Positions 1 through 8,853 of a stretch of DNA of 8,853 bases are shown here, one piece after another. Origin of the DNA: an uncultured Polyangiaceae bacterium (GTDB taxonomy: Bacteria; Myxococcota_A; Polyangia; Polyangiales; Polyangiaceae); NCBI GenBank assembly GCA_964610275.1, contig CAZSVU010000190.1, forward strand, positions 1 through 8,853. The letters are read 5' to 3'. The notes under the pieces are model-generated. The model worked only from the letters and a program-made list of their open reading frames with translations, ran no database searches and had not been told where the DNA came from. Made by a program: the position numbers and the translations under genes. Within the stretch, counting starts at the first letter, position 1, and the number at the start of each line of letters is the position of its first letter.

Positions 1-420
1 AGCGATGTCCCTGCGAAAGATGTCGTAGCTGGCAGTGTCGACATCCGCGGCGAATGTCGACAGCGGGTCGAAGGACGTCAGCGTGAACGGGTTGGTGCCC
101 ACCGGAATGTAGGTGTCGCCAGCGCTAGCACCGGCACTACCGGACTCGACGCGGAGCTCCGCCTCTTCCATCCCATCTGCACCGCTGAGGTACGCCGCGG
201 AGGCGCCTCCCGTCCCGGTCGAGTAGTTGCTGGTGGGATCGCCCTCAGGGGGCAGGACCGGGAGCCCACCGTCTGCGCTCACGTACGTGTCCCCGTCGTC
301 GTCGTCGCCCCCCGACGACGACGACGACGGCTCCTCACTCTCCGCATCCAGGCTGCAAGCGGCCGCGAGGGACCCGACAGCAGCGGCGAAAGCAATCAGC
401 AAGAACCGATCGGACGGCAT
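1..420 (-). CDS. Partial CDS (N-terminal 140 codons; continues past the window start): predicted lipoprotein with the YfbK-type N-terminal domain that normally precedes a von Willebrand factor A (vWA) domain
   Basis: It is absent from the ORF track because it runs off the window edge. The reverse complement of 1..420 is open for 140 codons from ATG (420..418): MPSDRFLLIAFAAAVGSLAAACSLDAESEEPSSSSSGGDDDDGDTYVS...GTNPFTLTSFDPLSTFAADVDTASYDIFRRDIA. It has a hydrophobic signal sequence ending in a lipobox-like LAAAC (Cys22). A GGGAGG Shine-Dalgarno sits at 434..429, 8 nt before the ATG. The NPF...PLSTF-x-x-DVDTASY block is the recognisable signature of the vWA N-terminal domain of YfbK-like proteins. 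Third codon positions are G/C-rich. Confidence 0.75.
   Translation of the reverse strand, partial: MPSDRFLLIAFAAAVGSLAAACSLDAESEEPSSSSSGGDDDDGDTYVSADGGLPVLPPEGDPTSNYSTGTGGASAAYLSGADGMEEAELRVESGSAGASAGDTYIPVGTNPFTLTSFDPLSTFAADVDTASYDIFRRDIA
294..326. repeat. Perfect 14-bp inverted repeat, (CGT)n / (ACG)n arms with a CCCCC loop, inside the coding sequence
   Basis: cgtcgtcgtcgtcg (294..307), ccccc, cgacgacgacgacg (313..326). On the coding (minus) strand this encodes SSSSS-GG-DDDD. Confidence 0.9.
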
Positions 421-448
421 GGCAAGAACCTCCCGAACGTGCCCGTGG

Positions 449-464
449 TGCAACCCGCGTGCCG
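449..464 (-). promoter_or_regulatory. Sigma-54 (-24/-12) promoter for the vWA-type lipoprotein gene
   Basis: The minus strand reads CGGCACG-CGGG-TTGCA, against the consensus TGGCACG-N4-TTGCW. It matches 15 of 16 positions with correct GG-N10-GC spacing. The predicted +1 is near 438, giving an 18-nt leader that contains the GGGAGG Shine-Dalgarno (434..429) before the ATG at 420. Confidence 0.6.
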
Positions 465-526
465 GGACCACCGCCGCATGGCATTTCGCTGGGTTGCGGC
501 GCCCGCCTGCGCCAGGGACGCGACGC

Positions 527-545
527 GGCACAGCTCGGCTGTGCC
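527..545. promoter_or_regulatory. Perfect inverted repeat GGCACAG-N5-CTGTGCC, a candidate upstream activator (EBP) site about 90-107 bp upstream of the 449..464 promoter start
   Basis: ggcacag ctcgg ctgtgcc has 7-bp perfect arms. No T-tract follows on either strand, so it is not a canonical intrinsic terminator for the gene ending at 570. Its right half lies within a 12-nt string, TCGGCTGTGCCA (535..546), that recurs at 7716..7727. Confidence 0.3.
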
Positions 546-569
546 AGAGTGAGCCACCGCCTGCCGCGC

Positions 570-1307
570 TCAGTCTGGGCTGTGAACCGTGATGGCACGT
601 CGCTCCGGCGGCGTGCCGATCCAAAGGAACACGATCTCCTCGTCGAAGGCAGCGCCAGCCACGACCTCCACCGTCACGCTCAGACTCTCGCCCGGCAGTA
701 CCGTCGCTGGCCAGGTCGCGCCCGTCCCAACCATGAGTGCGCTCGGCTCGAGGCGGGTGGTGGGCGCCGCAACCACCACGTCGGTAGTGCACGAGTTTCG
801 AATCTCGACGACGTCGGGCTGGGTCCCGAGGATGAGCTCGGCGGGCGGATCGATCTCGACGCATCCATCGGCAAGCGACCCACCCGTCCCCGGCGCTCCA
901 TCGACCCCGCCCACAGGAGGCGCCTCGGCATCTGAGGGCTGCGACCGTGCCCCATCGGCGATCACCTGGATGCGGATCTCGTCTCCTGCAGCACCAGGCA
1001 CGACCAGCTCGAAGCTCCCGTCTTCGGCCACGGTGGTTTCCACGTAGCTGTCCGCCGAGTCCAGGTTGTAGGCGCGCACCGTCGCACCCGGCGGAGACGC
1101 CGCTCCAGGACCTCCGCGCACGACCACGCCGTCCCCTCGCGTGGGGACTGCTTCGGAGTCCGTCACACCGACGTCCACCTGGTTCGGGTCCAGGGTGGCG
1201 TCCGGGGGCTCTGGCTTGGGGCTGATCTCGCAACCCACTGCGCACGCGATCAGTGCTGCCAGGACGTGGCACAGCCACTTCTGATTTCGAACCGCAGGCG
1301 CACTCAT
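570..1307 (-). CDS. Predicted lipoprotein of unknown function with two probable beta-sandwich (Ig-like) regions
   Basis: This is track ORF 570..1382, with the start trimmed to the internal ATG at 1307..1305. That start gives MSAPAVRNQKWLCHVLAALIACAVGC..., a classic n-region, h-region and lipobox LIAC. A GAGGA Shine-Dalgarno lies at 1316..1312. Third codon positions are G/C-rich. The segment VRAYNLDSADSYVETTVAEDGSFELVVPGAAGDEIRIQV resembles carboxypeptidase-regulatory-like folds. The C-terminal half (ELILGTQPDVVEIRNSCTTDVVV...LPGESLSVTVEV) resembles PapD/ASH-like beta-sandwich domains. The fold assignments are pattern recognition only. Confidence 0.75.
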   Translation of the reverse strand: MSAPAVRNQKWLCHVLAALIACAVGCEISPKPEPPDATLDPNQVDVGVTDSEAVPTRGDGVVVRGGPGAASPPGATVRAYNLDSADSYVETTVAEDGSFELVVPGAAGDEIRIQVIADGARSQPSDAEAPPVGGVDGAPGTGGSLADGCVEIDPPAELILGTQPDVVEIRNSCTTDVVVAAPTTRLEPSALMVGTGATWPATVLPGESLSVTVEVVAGAAFDEEIVFLWIGTPPERRAITVHSPD

Positions 1308-1321
1308 CTCGTCCTCAGTTT

Positions 1322-1337
1322 TGCAAATCCAATGCCC
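1322..1337 (-). promoter_or_regulatory. Sigma-54-like -24/-12 element upstream of the 570..1307 lipoprotein gene; positionally awkward
   Basis: The minus strand reads GGGCAT-TGGAT-TTGCA, with GGCA and TTGCA intact and correct spacing. The predicted +1 is near 1311, only about 4 nt before the ATG at 1307. That would exclude the GAGGA Shine-Dalgarno from the transcript, so the mRNA would be nearly leaderless or the match is fortuitous. Confidence 0.3.
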
Positions 1338-1479
1338 GTCTGAACAGGATTGGGTGGGCGACCAGCGCGGAGCGAGATCCACCCGTGAATTCGGCCGCCG
1401 TCGCGGGATCCAGGGATGCGCGCCGGCACTGTCACCGCAACCTGTGCAGCTCGGCTAGCGCAGATCATGTTTCATTCTG

Positions 1480-1485
1480 TATCAT
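1480..1485 (+). promoter_or_regulatory. Possible sigma-70-type -10 hexamer (TATCAT) placed so that transcription would start at or next to the ATG, giving a leaderless mRNA
   Basis: TATCAT lies 6 nt upstream of A1492 inside an unusually AT-rich 31-nt island (1461..1491). No Shine-Dalgarno-like purine run precedes the ATG. No good -35 element is seen. Confidence 0.25.
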
Positions 1486-1491
1486 TTTGGC

Positions 1492-4400
1492 ATGCTTCCC
1501 GACTCGGGGAGACAGTCGAACGGGATCACCGCGGGCTCGATCATCCAGCATCGCTACGAGGTGGTGCGCGCGCTCGGCCACGGGGGTCTGGCCACGACCT
1601 TCCTCGTTCGTGACCTGCTGGTGGGCACGAGCGTGGCCCTGAAGCTCCTCGCAGAATCCGCTCCCGAGGCACTGGAGGCTCTGCGATTCGAGTTTGCCGT
1701 GCTGCGCGAGCTCTACCACCCACACCTGTGCCAGGTGCACGACTTCGCCCTGGTGAGACCACGGGCGGGCGACGAGCGTCAGCTCGCGTTCTACACGGCC
1801 GAGTACGTGCCCGGACAAACCCTCGCAGAGCTGGCGCCAGCAGCAACCTGGCCCGGGCTGCGACAGCCGTTGGTCGACGCTCTGAGCGCGCTTCGGCTCT
1901 TGCACCGAGCCGGTCTTCGACACGGCGACTTCAAACCCGCCAACGTTCTGGTGCGAAGCAACGAACGGGGCGTGCTGATCGATCTCAGCTGTGCCCAGCG
2001 GACGGACGCCGCGCCTTCGGGCAGGGTGAGCGGCACGCCCGACTACCTGGCGCCGGAGCTGCTGAAGGCGGGGTCGGCGGACGCGCGAGCGGATCTGTAC
2101 GCGGTAGGACGGACGCTGCTCGAGCTGTCGGAGTCGGTGAAGCGCGGGCTACCGCCTGCGGTGATGAGTCTCGCACAGCGCTTGCTGCGAGACGACGTGG
2201 AGGCTCGCCCCGCAGACGTGGACGAAGTGCTCGAAGCCCTGGGGATCTCGCCGACCGAGCACGTGGCGGTACCGGTGGGTATCGGGCGTCTGGTGGGTCG
2301 CGACGAACAGCTCCAAACGGCACGCGGTGCCTTGGGCGCGCTCGCGGAAGGTACTGCTGGTCCGCGCTGCCTGTACGTGTGCGGGACAGAAGGCGTGGGG
2401 AAAAGCCGAGTCCTGCGGGAAATCAAGTGGACAGCCCAGCAGCAGTTCCGCGTCGTGGAGGCGAACTCCGCCAACCCCGGCGCCATCGACGCCCTGCTGC
2501 AGCACGCTCTGGGCGACGGGCGGTCGCACGGCTGGGCGGCCGTCGGAGCGCTGCGCCGGGCTCTGGCGGCCTCAACGTGGACATCCTGCGTTCTGTTCAT
2601 CGACGACGTCCACCTGCTCCGCGTTCGCCAGCGTCAGCTGCTCCTGGCAGTGGTGCGGTCCCTGGAGCCCACTGACGCGCTGTTGCTGGTCATCACGGGG
2701 CCCGCAGACCACGATCCGGGCGGGCCTGCCACGTGCCGCCTGGACCTTCGTCCACTGACCCCGGAGCAGATGGACGATTGGCTCGGCTCCACGTTGCCCG
2801 AGTCCGTTCGCACGGCGCTGCGCAAGCACAGTGGTGGGTTTCCCGGTGCCCTGCGCTCGCTGATCACGCAGCTCGCCACCGGCGCGATCTCGGAAGTCGA
2901 CATCAAGCGCGGTCAGCGCGGAATCGCTCTCTCCGGTCACCAGCGCGCCAGGGTGCGGGGACTGGACCCCGAGGCCCAGCGCGCGCTCGGTGCACTGGCA
3001 GTGGTGGGGCGCGCCTCCGGCGCTGCTGCTCTGGCACAACTGGGTGTCGACGAGGCTGCCCTGACCCAGCTGGCGAGCTCGGCCATCGTGGAACAAAACG
3101 AGCGGGGCTTCCGACTCTGGCGATGGGGCGAGAGCGAAGACGTGCTGGCAGCGTTGGATCCGGCGTTGGTGGCTGACCTTCATCGCCGCATGGCCGCGTG
3201 GCTCGCGACTCGGCCGCCCGAAGTCGCGCCGCTCAGCGACTCGGAGCAACTGGCCCGGCGGGTGCTGCACCTCGCTCTGGGCCGGGGTGAACAGGAGGCG
3301 CGGCAGCTACTGCTGGATTCGAACGCGCTTTGGGAGGATGTGCCCGGAGCTTGGGCCGAAGCGGCTCGGGCGGTCAGCTCGGTCAGCGCCGATCTCGAGG
3401 TCGGAATCGCTGCAGCCGCGCTGGAGCGTGAGGCAGGCGGCGCGCGGGCGGCCCGGGACCGACTGGTGGCAACCCAGGGACGCGCCATTCCAATTGCGCT
3501 ACGAGCTGCGTTCCACTTGGAGCTGGGGCTCTGTCACCTCAGGCTCGGCGACGCGAGCGCCGGCGAATCCGAGCTCAGCCGGGCGGCAGACGTCGCGCAG
3601 ACTCCAGAGCTGGCCGCTCGGGCGCAGGCCGCGCTGGCCGGATCGCTCAACAAGCGCGGGCGGTACCGCGAAGCCCTGGAGCTCGTGGACCGGGCGCTGG
3701 CGGCCGAGCTTCCTCCAGTGCTCCGCGCCGCGCTGCAGCAGGCCGGTGCGGTGGCGGACTGCTTCCTGGGCAACCTCGACCTCGCCCTAGGGAGAGTCCA
3801 GGAAGCGGCGCGTCTGCTGGGCTCGGTGACGCACCCACGACGGCTCGTGCGGGCCCTGGGAACACAGGCGCTGGTCGAGCAGCAGATGGGCAACTTGCAG
3901 GCGGCCACCACGCACTACGGCGCGGCTCTCGACCTGGCAGAGCAGCACGGCCTCTCCGACCAGATCGCCACGGCGGCGCTCAACCTGGGGACCGCGTTGC
4001 ACCAACAGGGCGACTGGAGCGAAGCACTCGTCGCCTACGAGCGCGGCTTGCTCACTGCGGCGGCCGTGGGTCAAGCCACTACGGAATCGTTGCTACGGTT
4101 CAACCTCTCGAAGCTGTACGCCGACTTGGGACAATTCGATCGTGCCGAGCTGGCCGCGGATCGCTGCCAAGCGCTGGCGCGACAGGGCGACCTCAACCTG
4201 GTCGCTGCGGAGGCCGAGGCCGTGCGTGGCGAGGTCCAAATGTTGCGCGGAGATCTGCGCGGGGCCCGTCGGTGCTTCGAGCATGCGCTGCTTCAATTCG
4301 ATCAGCACGAGAGTCGGCGGGAGCGCACCGAAGTCGCCCTGCAGCTCAGCGAAGTTCTGCTCGCGTGCCAAGAAGTCGACGCAGCCGAACGGCTGCTGGC

Positions 4401-6351
4401 CGAGGTCGCACCCCAGCTCGGTGACCTGGACGCCGAGGACACGAAGCTCAGGTGGCGGTTGGCCTCGGGTCGACTCGCGCTCGCCCGAGCCGATGCGGGC
4501 GCGGCGGCAGCGGCCGGCGAAGCAGCTTCGCGAGAGGCCAGCCGGCTGTCGTTGCAGGACGTCGAAGGTGATGCCGAGCTATTTCTCTCCGAGGTCTGGC
4601 GCGGCCAAGACTCTCCATCCCTGGCGCAGAAGCACTTGGTCCGTGCCCGGGAGGTCTGGGAACGAGCTGCCGTCACTCTGGAGCCTCAGCTGCGGGATGC
4701 CTTCTGGCGGCACCCACGGCGGCGTGACGCTCGCAGCCCGAGCGCCGAAGCGCGCGAGCCGGCCGGGTCCAACCGTCAGCGCAAGCTCGAGCTGCTGCTG
4801 GACATCAACCAGCGCCTGAACTCCTCACTGCGCACTTCCGAGATCCTGCAGCACACCATGGACGCCGCCATCCAACTCACCGGAGCCGAACGCGGTTTCG
4901 TCCTGCTACTGGAGTCGGCGGCATCGCCCCGAACGTTCCGGGTGGCAGTAGCTCGGAATCTCGACTGTGAGCAGTTGGAGCGCTCGCACTTGAAGTTCAG
5001 TCGCGCCATCGCCGAGCAGGTGGTGCAGTCGGCCACGCCCGTGGTGACGGCGAACGCTCAGACGGACGCTCGCTTCAGTCAGCACGACTCGGTGCATGCC
5101 ATGCACCTGCAGTCCGTCGTCTGCGTGCCGGTGGTTTCGCCAGCGGGCACACTCGGGGCCCTCTATCTCGACAATCGGTTTCAGGCGAATCGCTTCCGGC
5201 AGGCGGACGTCGAGATCTTGCTGGCGTTCTCGACTCAGGTCGCCATCGCGCTCAACAATGCGCGCCTGCACGACGAGCTCAAGAAGCGAAACCGGCAGCT
5301 GTCGCGCGAGCGTCAGCGAGTCGAAGAGTTGCTGCAGGGCCAGGCGGCGGAAATCGAGCGTTTGAGCGACGAGGTGCGCCGTGCCCGGACCACGCCCGAG
5401 CAACGCTACGACTACCAGGGCATCGTCGGAGCGAGCGACTCGATACGGCAGGTCTTCTCGCTACTGGACCGCGTCATCGAGACCGACCTGTCCATCCTCA
5501 TTCAGGGCGAGAGCGGTACCGGGAAGGAGTTGTTCGCGCGGGCCATCCACCTGAACAACTCCCAGCGGAAAGGCCCCCTGGTTTCGGTCAACTGCGCGGC
5601 GTTGCCACAGACCCTGCTCGAGAGCGAGCTGTTCGGATACGAGCGCGGTGCGTTCACCGGGGCGGACCGAAGCCGGGAGGGTCTATTGGTCAAGGCGCGC
5701 GGCGGAACGCTCTTCTTGGACGAGGTGGCCGATATGCCTCTACCCATGCAGGTGAAGCTCTTGCGCGCCCTGCAGGAGCGCGAGGTCCGTCCGCTCGGCT
5801 CCAGCCGAGTGGTGCCCATCGACATTCGTCTGGTGTGCGCCACCAACCGGCATCTCCAGAGTGAGGTCAAGCTTGGGGCCTTCCGCGCAGACCTGTACTA
5901 CCGAATCGCCGGTGTGGAGGCGACCCTGCCTCCGCTGCGTGACCGCCCGGAAGACATCCCGCTGCTGGTGCACCACCTGCTCGCTGCTGCCGCGCGACGC
6001 ATGGAGCGTCCCGTGCCTGAGCTCAGCCCACCGGCGTTGCGCAAGCTCACCGGGTTCGAGTGGCCGGGCAACGTCCGGCAGCTGGAGAACGTGGTGACCA
6101 AGGCGCTCGTCATGGCCGAGGGCAACCGCATCGCCGCGCGCGACATCGAGCTCCCCGGCGACGACGCCAGCGTGGCATCTGGCGCGAACCGAGACGCCTT
6201 CCTCCAGCACGAAGCCGAACGGATCGCCGCCGCTCTCGCCGAGAACCGGTGGAACGTGTCCAGGGTCGGCAGACTACTCGGGATCCCTCGGCCCACGCTC
6301 TATCGAAAGCTCAAGCGCTACGGGCTGATGCGCGCCAAGAGCAATCGCTGA
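1492..6351 (+). CDS. 1619-aa multidomain regulator: Ser/Thr protein kinase, STAND-type P-loop NTPase, TPR-like repeats, GAF, sigma-54 interaction AAA+ domain and Fis-type HTH (a sigma-54-dependent enhancer-binding protein fused to a kinase/STAND sensor)
   Basis: It is a single uninterrupted ORF with strong G/C bias at third codon positions. ATG 1492 is the first start after the in-frame stop at 1456..1458. The diagnostic motifs are listed in the domain sub-features below. Confidence 0.95.
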   Translation: MLPDSGRQSNGITAGSIIQHRYEVVRALGHGGLATTFLVRDLLVGTSVALKLLAESAPEALEALRFEFAVLRELYHPHLCQVHDFALVRPRAGDERQLAFYTAEYVPGQTLAELAPAATWPGLRQPLVDALSALRLLHRAGLRHGDFKPANVLVRSNERGVLIDLSCAQRTDAAPSGRVSGTPDYLAPELLKAGSADARADLYAVGRTLLELSESVKRGLPPAVMSLAQRLLRDDVEARPADVDEVLEALGISPTEHVAVPVGIGRLVGRDEQLQTARGALGALAEGTAGPRCLYVCGTEGVGKSRVLREIKWTAQQQFRVVEANSANPGAIDALLQHALGDGRSHGWAAVGALRRALAASTWTSCVLFIDDVHLLRVRQRQLLLAVVRSLEPTDALLLVITGPADHDPGGPATCRLDLRPLTPEQMDDWLGSTLPESVRTALRKHSGGFPGALRSLITQLATGAISEVDIKRGQRGIALSGHQRARVRGLDPEAQRALGALAVVGRASGAAALAQLGVDEAALTQLASSAIVEQNERGFRLWRWGESEDVLAALDPALVADLHRRMAAWLATRPPEVAPLSDSEQLARRVLHLALGRGEQEARQLLLDSNALWEDVPGAWAEAARAVSSVSADLEVGIAAAALEREAGGARAARDRLVATQGRAIPIALRAAFHLELGLCHLRLGDASAGESELSRAADVAQTPELAARAQAALAGSLNKRGRYREALELVDRALAAELPPVLRAALQQAGAVADCFLGNLDLALGRVQEAARLLGSVTHPRRLVRALGTQALVEQQMGNLQAATTHYGAALDLAEQHGLSDQIATAALNLGTALHQQGDWSEALVAYERGLLTAAAVGQATTESLLRFNLSKLYADLGQFDRAELAADRCQALARQGDLNLVAAEAEAVRGEVQMLRGDLRGARRCFEHALLQFDQHESRRERTEVALQLSEVLLACQEVDAAERLLAEVAPQLGDLDAEDTKLRWRLASGRLALARADAGAAAAAGEAASREASRLSLQDVEGDAELFLSEVWRGQDSPSLAQKHLVRAREVWERAAVTLEPQLRDAFWRHPRRRDARSPSAEAREPAGSNRQRKLELLLDINQRLNSSLRTSEILQHTMDAAIQLTGAERGFVLLLESAASPRTFRVAVARNLDCEQLERSHLKFSRAIAEQVVQSATPVVTANAQTDARFSQHDSVHAMHLQSVVCVPVVSPAGTLGALYLDNRFQANRFRQADVEILLAFSTQVAIALNNARLHDELKKRNRQLSRERQRVEELLQGQAAEIERLSDEVRRARTTPEQRYDYQGIVGASDSIRQVFSLLDRVIETDLSILIQGESGTGKELFARAIHLNNSQRKGPLVSVNCAALPQTLLESELFGYERGAFTGADRSREGLLVKARGGTLFLDEVADMPLPMQVKLLRALQEREVRPLGSSRVVPIDIRLVCATNRHLQSEVKLGAFRADLYYRIAGVEATLPPLRDRPEDIPLLVHHLLAAAARRMERPVPELSPPALRKLTGFEWPGNVRQLENVVTKALVMAEGNRIAARDIELPGDDASVASGANRDAFLQHEAERIAAALAENRWNVSRVGRLLGIPRPTLYRKLKRYGLMRAKSNR
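1555..2241 (+). other. Domain: Hanks-type Ser/Thr protein kinase catalytic domain (aa ~22-250)
   Basis: Motifs present: Gly-loop LGHGGLATTF; VALK (Lys51); alphaC Glu in RFEFAVLRELYHPHL; catalytic loop RHGDFKPANVL (Asp146, Asn151); DLS in place of DFG (Asp164); GTPDYLAPE. Confidence 0.9.
2287..2871 (+). other. Domain: STAND/AAA_16-like P-loop NTPase (aa ~266-460)
   Basis: The preamble LVGRDEQL is followed by Walker A GTEGVGKS (aa 298-305, nt 2383..2406) and Walker B VLFIDDVH (aa 367-374, nt 2590..2613). This layout is typical of PknK/MalT/AfsR-type signalling NTPases that follow a kinase domain. Confidence 0.75.
3508..4690 (+). other. Region: TPR-like / alpha-helical repeat scaffold
   Basis: Recurrent ~34-40 aa Leu/Ala-rich helical units are present. 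Examples: LGLCHLRLGDASAGESELSRAADVA, LAGSLNKRGRYREALELVDRALA, LNLGTALHQQGDWSEALVAYERGL, LSKLYADLGQFDRAELAADRCQALA and VRGEVQMLRGDLRGARRCFEHAL. The boundaries are approximate. Confidence 0.65.
4786..5280 (+). other. Domain: GAF (aa ~1099-1263)
   Basis: LELLLDINQRLNSSLRTSEILQHTMDAAIQLTGAERGFVLLLE...SVVCVPVVSPAGTLGALYLDN...ILLAFSTQVAIALNNARLHDEL. This is a typical GAF pattern as found N-terminal to NifA/FhlA-type activators. A short coiled-coil linker follows (KKRNRQLSRERQRVEELLQGQAAEIERLSDEV). Confidence 0.85.
5407..6100 (+). other. Domain: sigma-54 interaction AAA+ ATPase core
   Basis: Motifs present: Walker A GESGTGKE (5506..5529); ESELFGYERGAFTGA with an intact GAFTGA loop (5647..5664); Walker B GGTLFLDEV; sensor I LVCATN; FRADLYYRI; WPGNVRQLENV. 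Confidence 0.95.
6244..6330 (+). other. Domain: Fis-type helix-turn-helix DNA-binding domain
   Basis: NRWNVSRVGRLLGIPRPTLYRKLKRYGL is the canonical C-terminal HTH_8 of NtrC-family activators. Confidence 0.9.
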
Positions 6352-6402: not shown

Positions 6403-7314
6403 TCAGTACGGAATGGCGTATCGGGCCACGTTGCAGTTGAGATCGAGCAGACAGTCAGCGTCCTCACAATCGACAGTCCCGTCGAAGTCGTTGTCGACGC
6501 CGTCCGTGCAGTTCTCCATGGGAACGGCGTAGTCGGCTTGCCCCACGCAGAGTATGTCCGCACTGCAGTCGGTGTCGTCGCAGTCGATGGCGTTGTCGCC
6601 GTCGTCGTCGATCCCGTTGCCGCAGTTGGTCTCGATGGGGATCCCATACCGCTCACCCGCGCAGGCTGCGGCTGACGTGCAATCCGCATCGGCGCAGTCA
6701 ACCGCGCCGTCGAAGTCGTCGTCGACGCCGTTGGTGCAGTCCTCCAGCGGAACGCCATATTCCGGCTGCCCCACGCACACTGGATCCGACGCGCAGTCGG
6801 TGTCGTCGCAGTCGACGGCATTGTCGCCGTCGTCGTCCGTGCCGTTGCTGCAGTCGGTCTCCATGGGCACGCCGTAGACAGGCTGCCCGACGCAGACGGG
6901 ATCCTGGGCACAGTCTTGGTCGCTGCAGTCGATGGCGTCGTCGCCGTCGTCGTCGATGCCGTTGCTGCAGTCACTCTCCAGCGGAATGGCGTAGCGTTCG
7001 CCGGCGGAACATGCAGGCGTACCCGCGCAAGTGTCGTCGGCGCAATCGACCGCTCCGTCCTGATCGTTGTCCACCTGGTCGCTGCACTGCTCGGCGCAGT
7101 CTGGCCCGCTGCAGGTCCCCTCACCGACCGAGTCGGTACCTCCACTGCTCTCTCCGCCGCAGGCCGCGAGCACCAGCGTGGTGCCCAGCGCTGCCGGCGC
7201 AGCCAGGCGCCGGCGCAGCCACCGCCGCCAGGGCAGCGGCGCAGTGCCGGTCGGCGTGCTGCACACGAGCTCGAGAAAAGCTTGAAGATCCCTAGCGTGC
7301 TGGTGGGTGGACAT
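6403..7314 (-). CDS. Secreted lipoprotein with six tandem ~38-aa Cys/Asp-rich repeats carrying DxDxDG-type (thrombospondin type-3 / EF-hand-like) putative Ca2+-binding loops
   Basis: This is track ORF 6403..7314 (303 aa). A strong AGGAGG Shine-Dalgarno lies at 7326..7321, 6 nt before the ATG at 7314. The signal region is ...RRWLRRRLAAPAALGTTLVLAACGG, with lipobox LAAC (Cys52). The repeat unit is C-x-[ND]-G-x-D-[DN]-D-x-D-[GDN]-A-[VI]-D-C-x-D-x-D-C-x(5,6)-C-...-Y-[AG]-[VI]-P. Third codon positions are G/C-rich. Confidence 0.9.
   Translation of the reverse strand: MSTHQHARDLQAFLELVCSTPTGTAPLPWRRWLRRRLAAPAALGTTLVLAACGGESSGGTDSVGEGTCSGPDCAEQCSDQVDNDQDGAVDCADDTCAGTPACSAGERYAIPLESDCSNGIDDDGDDAIDCSDQDCAQDPVCVGQPVYGVPMETDCSNGTDDDGDNAVDCDDTDCASDPVCVGQPEYGVPLEDCTNGVDDDFDGAVDCADADCTSAAACAGERYGIPIETNCGNGIDDDGDNAIDCDDTDCSADILCVGQADYAVPMENCTDGVDNDFDGTVDCEDADCLLDLNCNVARYAIPY
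6406..7086 (-). repeat. Six in-frame coding repeats (~114-117 bp each), alternating between two subtypes
   Basis: The repeats start at Cys77, 116, 155, 193, 231 and 269. The subtype DDDGD[DN]A[IV]DC[SD]D[QT]DC...CVGQ alternates with the subtype D[DN]D[FQ]DG[AT]VDC[AE]D[AD][DT]C. At DNA level, ~230-bp double units (for example 6563..6650 against 6793..6880) are clearly similar. Confidence 0.85.
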
Positions 7315-7372: not shown

Positions 7373-7388
7373 TGCAATCTGCATGCCA
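7373..7388 (-). promoter_or_regulatory. Sigma-54 (-24/-12) promoter P1, proximal, for the Cys/Asp-repeat lipoprotein gene
   Basis: The minus strand reads TGGCATG-CAGA-TTGCA. It matches the consensus TGGCACG-N4-TTGCW at every specified position except C to T at position 6, and it fits TGGCAY-N5-TTGCW perfectly. The predicted +1 is near 7362, giving a 48-nt leader containing AGGAGG before the ATG at 7314. Confidence 0.75.
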
Positions 7389-7502
7389 GGTAGCGTGCCG
7401 GCGAGCACACCTGCCACCCTGTCGGGCACTTGGAAAGCCAAGCTAAGCGCTTGACGGCCTCTTCTCGACAGATGCACCCGCCGGCATTTCGGGAGGTTCT
7501 GT

Positions 7503-7523
7503 CGGTGAGCGAGAAGCTCACCG
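7503..7523. promoter_or_regulatory. Perfect 8-bp inverted repeat CGGTGAGC-GAGAA-GCTCACCG, a candidate activator-binding site for P1 or a leader hairpin of the P2 transcript
   Basis: The repeat was read directly from the sequence. It is centred about 150 bp upstream of the predicted P1 start, which is the typical distance for enhancer-binding protein sites. Confidence 0.3.
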
Positions 7524-7559
7524 GCTGGGGATGTGTGTGAAGAAGCCTGGAAACGAGAC

Positions 7560-7575
7560 AGCAAGTACGGTGCCA
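7560..7575 (-). promoter_or_regulatory. Sigma-54 (-24/-12) promoter P2, distal, same orientation as P1
   Basis: The minus strand reads TGGCAC-CGTAC-TTGCT, a perfect match to the TGGCAC-N5-TTGCW core. The predicted +1 is near 7549, about 235 nt upstream of the ATG at 7314. Confidence 0.6.
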
Positions 7576-7649: not shown

Positions 7650-7904
7650 AACAGAGGAGCACCACCTGCCGGCGCAGCAAACAGCTCGAATCTAGTTGAT
7701 ACGATTTGAGACAGGTCGGCTGTGCCAAATGAGCGGTGGATTTGCTCCTTGGGCTGGCCGACGCCGTGAATTGCAGTCCTGACGTCTTCCCGCTCAGAAG
7801 ATGCGCAATCGATGCCGAGAACAATCCGCAGCGACTGCCTGCATGCACGGCGCACGGGTGACAGTACCGGGGTAAACGCTCCTCAAGGTGGAGGCACTGG
7901 GACT

Positions 7905-8853
7905 ATGAAAGACTTGATAAAGGCATTGGGCAGCCTCGCGCTTGCAGGCGCGTTGCTGGGAATCGGTTGCGGCGACAGCGGGTCGTCAGGCGATGACGAC
8001 GGCGGCGACGGCGGCGCAACGAGCATGGGCGGGTACGTTGGGTCGCTCGGAGGAGGATCCAGCACTACCGGTGGATCGACCGGCGATGCGGGCTCTGACA
8101 CCGGCTCGGGCGGCTCTGACACCGGCTCGGGTGGCTCTGACACCGGCTCGGGTGGCTCTGACACCGGCTCGGGCGGTGATGACACCGGCTCGGGTGGTGA
8201 TGACACCGGAGCTGGCGGCGCGACCGCGGACGAGTGCCCGGCCACACAGCCCGACGACGGGGACGCTTGCGACGCAATGGCCCTCCTCGGAACGACCTGC
8301 GACTACGGGAACACCTCCTGCACCTGTGACTTCGCCATGGGTGGCGGCACCTGGAACTGCGGAGGCGACACGGGAACCGGCGGCGCCGGCGGCGCAGGGG
8401 GCGATGTGTGCCCGGCCAACGAGCCCGACGACGGTGACGCGTGCACCTTCGCCGAGATGGGCACCACCTGCAGCTACGGCAACACGGACTGCACCTGCGA
8501 AAACACCGGCGGCTTCAACCTCGCCTGGAACTGCGGCGGCGCCACCGGAACAGGAGGTTCGGCCGGCGGCGGCAGCACTGACGCGTGCCCGGCCAACGAG
8601 CCCGACGACGGCGACTCCTGCGATATGGCTACGGTCGGTGGAGAGACCTGCACCTACGGTGGCACGACCTGCACCTGCGAATGGCAGGGCGGAGGTACGT
8701 GGAACTGCACCGGCGACACGGGGACTGGCGGCTCGGCGGGTGGCGGTAGCACCGATGCGTGTCCGGCCAACGAACCCACCGACGGCGGCTCGTGCGACAT
8801 GGCTACGGTCGGTGGAGAGACCTGCACCTACGGTGGCACGACCTGCACCTGCG
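7905..8853 (+). CDS. Partial CDS (316 codons; continues past the window end): lipoprotein with an acidic Gly/Ser/Asp linker and at least four tandem ~58-aa six-cysteine modules
   Basis: It is absent from the ORF track because there is no stop within the window. The frame is open from ATG 7905 to the window end: MKDLIKALGSLALAGALLGIGCGDSGSSGDDDGGDGG... The lipobox-like motif is LGIGC (Cys22). GGTGGAGG lies at 7887..7894, 10 nt upstream of the ATG. The module is CP-A-x-x-P-x-DG-x-x-C-x(5,6)-G-x-TC-x-YG-x-T-x-CTC-x(5,9)-WNC, joined by Gly-rich linkers. Third codon positions are G/C-rich. Confidence 0.85.
   Translation, partial: MKDLIKALGSLALAGALLGIGCGDSGSSGDDDGGDGGATSMGGYVGSLGGGSSTTGGSTGDAGSDTGSGGSDTGSGGSDTGSGGSDTGSGGDDTGSGGDDTGAGGATADECPATQPDDGDACDAMALLGTTCDYGNTSCTCDFAMGGGTWNCGGDTGTGGAGGAGGDVCPANEPDDGDACTFAEMGTTCSYGNTDCTCENTGGFNLAWNCGGATGTGGSAGGGSTDACPANEPDDGDSCDMATVGGETCTYGGTTCTCEWQGGGTWNCTGDTGTGGSAGGGSTDACPANEPTDGGSCDMATVGGETCTYGGTTCTC
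8091..8216 (+). repeat. Six tandem copies of a 21-bp unit (ggctctgacaccggctcgggY), in frame, encoding the heptad GSDTGSG x4 followed by two GD-variant heptads (GDDTGSG, GDDTGAG)
   Basis: The units lie at 8091-8111, 8112-8132, 8133-8153, 8154-8174, 8175-8195 and 8196-8216. The first four are nearly identical and the last two are diverged (ggtgat...). Confidence 0.95.
8235..8853 (+). repeat. At least four tandem coding repeats with a 174-177 bp period (the six-Cys module)
   Basis: The module first-Cys codons are at 8235, 8409, 8586 and 8760. Modules 3 and 4 are nearly identical over ...atggctacggtcggtggagagacctgcacctacggtggcacgacctgcacctgcg, which points to recent duplication or gene conversion. 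Confidence 0.85.

Follow-up and report, generated by a model that had tools for sequence, protein, structure and literature searches.

A predicted sigma-54 promoter in front of a YfbK-type vWA lipoprotein gene in Polyangia

Results

The window, by which I mean the whole 8853-bp stretch of DNA analysed here (G+C content about 67%), begins with the 5' part of a YfbK-type vWA lipoprotein gene on the minus strand (1..420), of which 140 codons are present and which continues beyond the window. The frame from position 420 encodes the lipoprotein signal peptide MPSDRFLLIAFAAAVGSLAAAC, with LAAAC at its end, and then the first part of the vWF_A domain PF12450 (E=3.7e-8). While the window reaches no further than the signal peptide and the beginning of PF12450, the copy in the related locus L006, of which the N-terminus is 61% identical, has PF12450 and VWA, and full-length homologues combine PF12450, VWA and PF12034 (YfbK_C). 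The family proteins encoded in the fetched vWA loci all start with lipoprotein signal peptides. No function is known to have been established for the YfbK-type vWA lipoproteins, not even in E. coli.

Upstream of the vWA gene and in the same orientation lies gene B (570..1307, minus strand), encoding a lipoprotein of 245 amino acids without a family match, which is divergent from a large activator gene on the plus strand (1492..6351). The product of the latter, 1619 amino acids long, contains Ser/Thr Pkinase, AAA_16, TPR, GAF, Sigma54_activat and HTH_8 domains, the last two with high significance (PF00158, E=2.8e-69, and PF02954, E=5.6e-14, respectively), and both GESGTGKE (Walker A) and GAFTGA can be read in its translation. 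These features identify it as an enhancer-binding protein of the sigma-54 type. The named proteins closest to it, at 42-47% identity, are from Sorangium, Polyangium and Minicystis, which places the source of the window among uncultured Polyangia (Myxococcota). The kinase domain (1492..2150, plus strand) reads HGDFKPAN, with HGD for HRD, and DLS for DFG, while the VALK lysine and APE are kept, and it may be a non-RD kinase or a pseudokinase. Located 6-16 nt upstream of the activator ATG is a direct repeat, TGTTTCA-TTC-TGTATCA (1468..1484, plus strand; consensus TGTnTCAnTnTGTnTCA), which is unusually AT-rich for this genome and is kept in seven of the nine loci that share the pairing of gene B with the activator gene; an operator, a promoter element and a translation signal of the activator gene are all conceivable roles. 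Beyond the activator gene follow gene D (6403..7314, minus strand, ATG at 7314), encoding an acidic double-disulfide-repeat lipoprotein (NF033662, six repeats), and a divergent gene (7905..8853, plus strand) for a Cys-rich lipoprotein with GSDTGSG tandem repeats and CPANEPDDGDxC...TCTC modules, but without a family match. Exact-protein look-ups of the window's own genes gave no matches on record, and none of its non-coding regions had a match in Rfam.

The sequence in front of the vWA gene had been described in a preliminary description, made from the letters alone, as a sigma-54 promoter that matches TGGCACG-N4-TTGCW in 15 of 16 positions on the minus strand. Re-reading shows this to be correct. 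The box CGGCACGCGGGTTGCA (464..449, minus strand) agrees with the consensus at 11 of the 12 specified positions, or 15 of 16 if the four N are counted, the sole mismatch being a C for T at the first base, and its GG (463/462) and GC (451/450) are spaced at exactly 10 nt. It lies in non-coding DNA, in the sense orientation, 28 nt from the vWA ATG. With the -12 position assigned to C450, standard sigma-54 promoter geometry would place the transcription start at 438, plus or minus 2 nt, on the minus strand. The predicted leader is then the 18-nt sequence GTTCGGGAGGTTCTTGCC (438..421), which includes the Shine-Dalgarno site GGGAGG (434..429, minus strand) located 8 nt before the ATG (420..418). 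Each of these earlier coordinates, i.e. the predicted start near 438, the 18-nt leader, the GGGAGG and the ATG at 420, was recovered on re-reading. No sigma-70-like promoter was found in a scan of positions 1..1600.

Boxes of this kind are far more frequent in the window than expected. With at most one mismatch three are observed against 0.13 expected, and with at most two mismatches six against 1.82; in neither case did any of 200 shuffles (dinucleotide shuffles for the former) reach the observed number. The three boxes with at most one mismatch are all intergenic and directed at the gene downstream, one at the vWA gene and two at gene D.

The gene order of vWA, B and divergent activator is common to the window and its two closest relatives, L001 and L006, the activator of L001 being 88% identical to that of the window. 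The 449..464 box is identical in both relatives save for one spacer base. In a three-way alignment of the intergenic region between B and vWA from the window, L001 and L006, four blocks are invariant: GGTGGCTCACTCTGGCACAG-nnn-AGCTGTGCCG, CGCAACC..GCGAAAT, CGGCACGCnGGTTGCA and GGGAGGTTCTTGCCATG, the last of which covers the Shine-Dalgarno region. Between these blocks the sequence diverges and contains indels of 1 and 2 nt, which suggests that the region is non-coding and is selected at those elements that a sigma-54 promoter needs.

I collected loci encoding homologues of the vWA N-terminus, 80 from metagenomes and 71 from species-representative genomes, and scanned the sense strand upstream of each vWA gene, with the GG and GC cores required. 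The named loci are nearly all from Polyangia, Polyangiaceae, Sandaracinaceae or other Myxococcota. The scan found a box with no more than one mismatch in 30 of the 80 metagenome loci (30 in 38.8 kb, against a background of 9 in 735 kb over the remainder of the loci, about 63-fold) and in 37 of the 71 genome loci (37 in 41.5 kb, against 5 in 739 kb, about 130-fold). The upstream windows of 150 vWA loci hold 66 boxes in the sense and a single one in the antisense orientation. The family boxes are located at a median of 37.5 nt from the first in-frame ATG; a large group of them lies at 22-29 nt with GGAGG in between, which the 28 nt of the window fits, and nine of the 66 have a C as first base, as in the window. 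About half of the vWA family loci are without a box at this stringency. In one vWA subgroup, to which some of these loci belong, a variant, TGGC[CG]CG-N3-GCTGCT, with CTGCT for TTGCT at -12, is located 23-27 nt before the ATG (L007, L011, L012, L020, L025, L032, L034-L036 and L042). These variants, which fall outside the one-mismatch counts, are probably sigma-54 promoters as well. The conservation of the box in L001 and L006, together with its strongly oriented recurrence in the family, which is the main evidence, bears out the earlier proposal of a sigma-54 promoter in front of the vWA gene.

Short motifs can arise randomly, and the first position of this box is a C, which would both agree with a chance match in GC-rich DNA devoid of promoter function. 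I consider this explanation highly improbable, as a window of this size is expected to contain just 0.13 such boxes, as the box is kept in the relatives while its flanks diverge, and as the family boxes point almost without exception towards the vWA gene.

Further upstream, a perfect inverted repeat, GGCACAG-CCGAG-CTGTGCC, is located at 545..527, corresponding to -107..-89 relative to the predicted start and beginning 25 nt past the stop codon of gene B. With one more base it forms the enhancer-like element TGGCACAG-CCGAG-CTGTGCC (546..527, minus strand, -108..-89), a putative protein-binding site whose arms stay the same in the window, L001 and L006 while its loop differs. Within the vWA family the motif TGGCACA is found upstream in 23 of 60 non-redundant regions, against 1.6 expected (k-mer test, z=16), with a peak near -100. 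Its shorter form TGGCAC occurs at -150..-60 in 27 of 60 vWA upstream regions; 28 occurrences are sense and 11 antisense, and 24 of these 39 lie at -125..-76. An anchored alignment gives the consensus cTGGCACA-N3-tGGCaCAg, in which the half-sites repeat in tandem every 10 bp; TGGCACAG at -108 corresponds to the first half-site of this family element. The second half-site is inverted in the window, as it also is in L119, L148 and L021, and direct in most relatives; a search for a palindrome shared among the upstream regions of the family promoters found none. Hence the earlier proposal of an enhancer at 527..545 stands with regard to its position and its 5' arm, which match the family TGGCACA element, while the palindrome by which it was recognised is not a conserved feature, a direct repeat being usual.

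Some further occurrences were discarded. The 10-mer AGCCGAGCTG, common to 540..531 and the region upstream of gene B, is not kept in L001 and was treated as chance. The copy of TGGCACAGCC at 1267..1276 and the copies of TGGCACAG inside the kinase gene lie within conserved codons (LCH/LCQ) and were not counted as regulatory; with one mismatch allowed, the count of the 10-mer was not significant.

Alternatively, the 527..545 repeat may form a hairpin in the RNA where gene B ends, serving as a terminator or a stabiliser and not as a site for protein binding, with the vWA gene transcribed mostly by read-through from the promoter of gene B. The short distance to the gene B stop codon would suit such a hairpin, and kept arms around a variable loop in L001 and L006 are also what a hairpin would be expected to show. 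However, the stem is followed by GCGTCGCG instead of a T-run, the terminator scan is silent here, and the predicted fold is no better than that of shuffled sequence (z=-0.47). Moreover, the 13 nt 5' of the stem are likewise invariant, and TGGCACA keeps its distance to the promoter in relatives whose upstream genes are unrelated. I therefore regard the hairpin as improbable and treat the repeat as an enhancer-like element below.

In between this element and the core box lies the invariant block CGCAACC..GCGAAAT (482..500, minus strand), a candidate DNA-bending site. In the family, A/T bases are enriched in phase at -56..-54 and -47..-44, and the A/T bases of the block (about -57/-56 and -48..-45) coincide with these peaks, from which I infer a bending region. 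By eye, the block holds no clear match to the IHF consensus.

Gene B appears to have its own promoter. A weaker sigma-54 box, GGGCATTGGATTTGCA (1337..1322, minus strand), is followed after 14 nt by the gene B ATG at 1307. The pair of gene B and activator gene is conserved in nine loci (the window, L001-L005 and L157-L159), and in eight of these gene B is immediately preceded by a sigma-54 box, often a perfect match. A genome scan for relatives of gene B returned none, and the synteny was found via the activator homologues. Because gene B carries this conserved box of its own, it and the vWA gene are apparently promoted separately despite their shared orientation, in agreement with what had been suggested from the letters alone. 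Nothing resembling a strong terminator was found between gene B and the vWA gene, so read-through from gene B may contribute to vWA transcription.

The gene B ATG is located only 13-15 nt after TTGCW in eight of the nine loci (1305..1337, minus strand, in the window, and L001-L003, L005 and L157-L159), which predicts a leader of about 3-5 nt without a ribosome-binding site, i.e. a nearly leaderless sigma-54 transcript. About six promoters of the vWA family show a similar spacing of 13-14 nt between box and ATG. A literature search on leaderless transcripts in Myxococcus gave nothing relevant.

On the other side of the activator gene, gene D is preceded by two sigma-54 boxes in tandem, 187 bp apart: a proximal one, TGGCATGCAGATTGCA (7388..7373, minus strand), with at most one mismatch, and a distal one, TGGCACCGTACTTGCT (7575..7560, minus strand), which has a counterpart in L003. 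That locus also has two boxes, 366 bp apart. A second copy of the enhancer-like element, TGGCACAGCCGACCTGTCTC (7727..7708, minus strand), is 16/20 identical to 546..527 and located at about -179 from the distal box, and L003 has TGGCACA at about -186 of the distal-box counterpart. In the region 7389..7575 (minus strand), the approximately 160 nt after the distal box share the blocks CCGACAGAACCTCC, GGCGGGyGCAyC and GCTTGGCTTTCC with L003 (15950..16129, minus strand), the proteins being only about 45% identical. This region folds better than shuffled sequences (z=-3.4) and contains a CCUCC anti-Shine-Dalgarno-like motif. It is a candidate for a sigma-54-driven small RNA or a structured leader.

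Discussion

Taken together, these observations make it very probable that a functional sigma-54 (RpoN) promoter for the vWA gene at 420 has its -24/-12 core at 449..464 on the minus strand. In such a promoter, sigma-54 RNA polymerase would occupy GG(463/462)-N10-GC(451/450) as a closed complex, and an AAA+ enhancer-binding protein bound at the element containing TGGCACAG (546..527), about 100 bp upstream, would reach the polymerase by DNA looping, possibly with the aid of the A/T bases phased near -56 and -46. ATP hydrolysis by the activator would then open the promoter, transcription would begin near 438, and the 18-nt leader would carry only the GGGAGG ribosome site. I infer the transcription start, the rpoN dependence, the looping and the identity of the binding activator from sequence.

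Fusions of a sigma-54 activator with a Ser/Thr kinase are numerous in Polyangia (Sorangium and relatives). In the window, an intact gene for a sigma-54 activator lies at 1 kb from the promoter. Among single candidates for driving the vWA promoter this adjacent kinase-GAF protein ranks first, a tentative assignment to which I would give somewhat less than even chances. The chance is close to even, on the other hand, that the promoter is sigma-54 dependent and driven by an activator encoded elsewhere, in which case the neighbour would act only on its conserved partner, gene B, and perhaps on gene D, and would have come to lie next to the vWA gene by a recent accident. In the metagenome loci L007-L085 no sigma-54 AAA+ domain is found within 4 kb of the vWA gene, while many of these loci still carry the box and TGGCACA; among the metagenome vWA loci it is L006 that forms an exception, sharing the synteny of the window including the activator. 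Conversely, the pair of gene B and activator is kept without a vWA gene in L002-L005 and L157-L159. As the activator is absent near most vWA genes and the pair occurs without vWA, the promoter travels with the vWA gene and not with the activator. The window's own intergenic region between B and activator also lacks TGGCAC. However, three observations speak for the adjacent activator: the second copy of the element lies beyond the activator gene, upstream of a gene D sigma-54 box; extra copies of TGGCAC are present in four of the nine intergenic regions between B and activator, against 0.98 expected (20 of 2000 shuffles reached this number); and of about 14 further sigma-54-like boxes in the fetched loci none is preceded by such a copy.

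Ser/Thr kinase genes adjoin the vWA homologue in the unrelated loci L021, L032, L035, L050, L082 and L085; those of L032, L035 and L021 lie immediately upstream of it and in divergent orientation. This hints at a recurrent association of kinase and vWA genes that is independent of the sigma-54 activator.

A more far-reaching scenario is that the kinase-STAND-GAF activator reads TGGCACA tandems that mimic the -24 box, and thereby runs a small envelope regulon comprising gene B, the vWA gene, gene D and the structured RNA of about 160 nt, with several of the transcripts essentially leaderless. I consider it rather unlikely to hold. A literature search found no description of such a combination of activator, TGGCACA and envelope regulon.

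What is new here is modest, namely, for Polyangia, a gene predicted to be a conserved member of a sigma-54 regulon and a candidate motif for the enhancer. The YfbK-type vWA family has apparently not been linked to sigma-54 before, the promoter architecture itself being standard; a literature search gave nothing that links sigma-54 to vWA/YfbK lipoproteins, and such work may still exist. The locus offers a testable promoter, a conserved family of targets and, in the TGGCACA repeats near -100, a candidate binding motif, and could thereby serve as a starting point for defining one regulon of the kinase-fused activator class, for which the literature search found no target promoters or binding sites described. 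These elements also agree with the view that control by sigma-54 is directed chiefly at components of the cell exterior. The value of these observations lies in annotation and regulon mapping, and not in a new mechanism.

Classical sigma-54 promoters of the glnAp2/NtrC type are enhancer-dependent, and the NtrC site is a palindrome. The promoter described here resembles them in its GG-N10-GC core matching TGGCAC-N5-TTGCW, in the (here putative) activator site about 100 bp upstream, in the presumably bendable A/T region in between, and in the nearby gene for an AAA+ activator that has GAFTGA and an HTH of the Fis type. Unlike the NtrC palindrome, TGGCACA resembles the -24 box and forms a tandem direct repeat in most relatives, and the place of a two-component response regulator is taken by the candidate activator, a 1619-aa kinase-STAND-GAF fusion.

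The sigma-54 promoters of Myxococcus xanthus under control of Nla28, Nla6 and ActB share with the present one the phylum, the consensus TGGCACG-N4-TTGC(T/A) and the use of tandem imperfect repeats, not simple palindromes, by their activators, and their targets include cell-envelope functions (PMC9765219). The Nla28 half-site, however, is CT(C/G)CG(C/G)AG, and many of the sigma-54 promoters in M. xanthus lie within genes and have long leaders (PMC9765219), whereas the element here is TGGCACA, the box is intergenic, the predicted leader is 18 nt and the lineage is Polyangia. The vWA target family is not among the reported M. xanthus targets (PMC9765219).

The kinase-fused activators of Sorangium and Polyangium have, according to database annotations, the domain order of the 1619-aa protein and are 42-47% identical to it over the full length. 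In contrast to these annotated activators, the present locus allows candidate sites to be named, along with a conserved partner of the activator gene.
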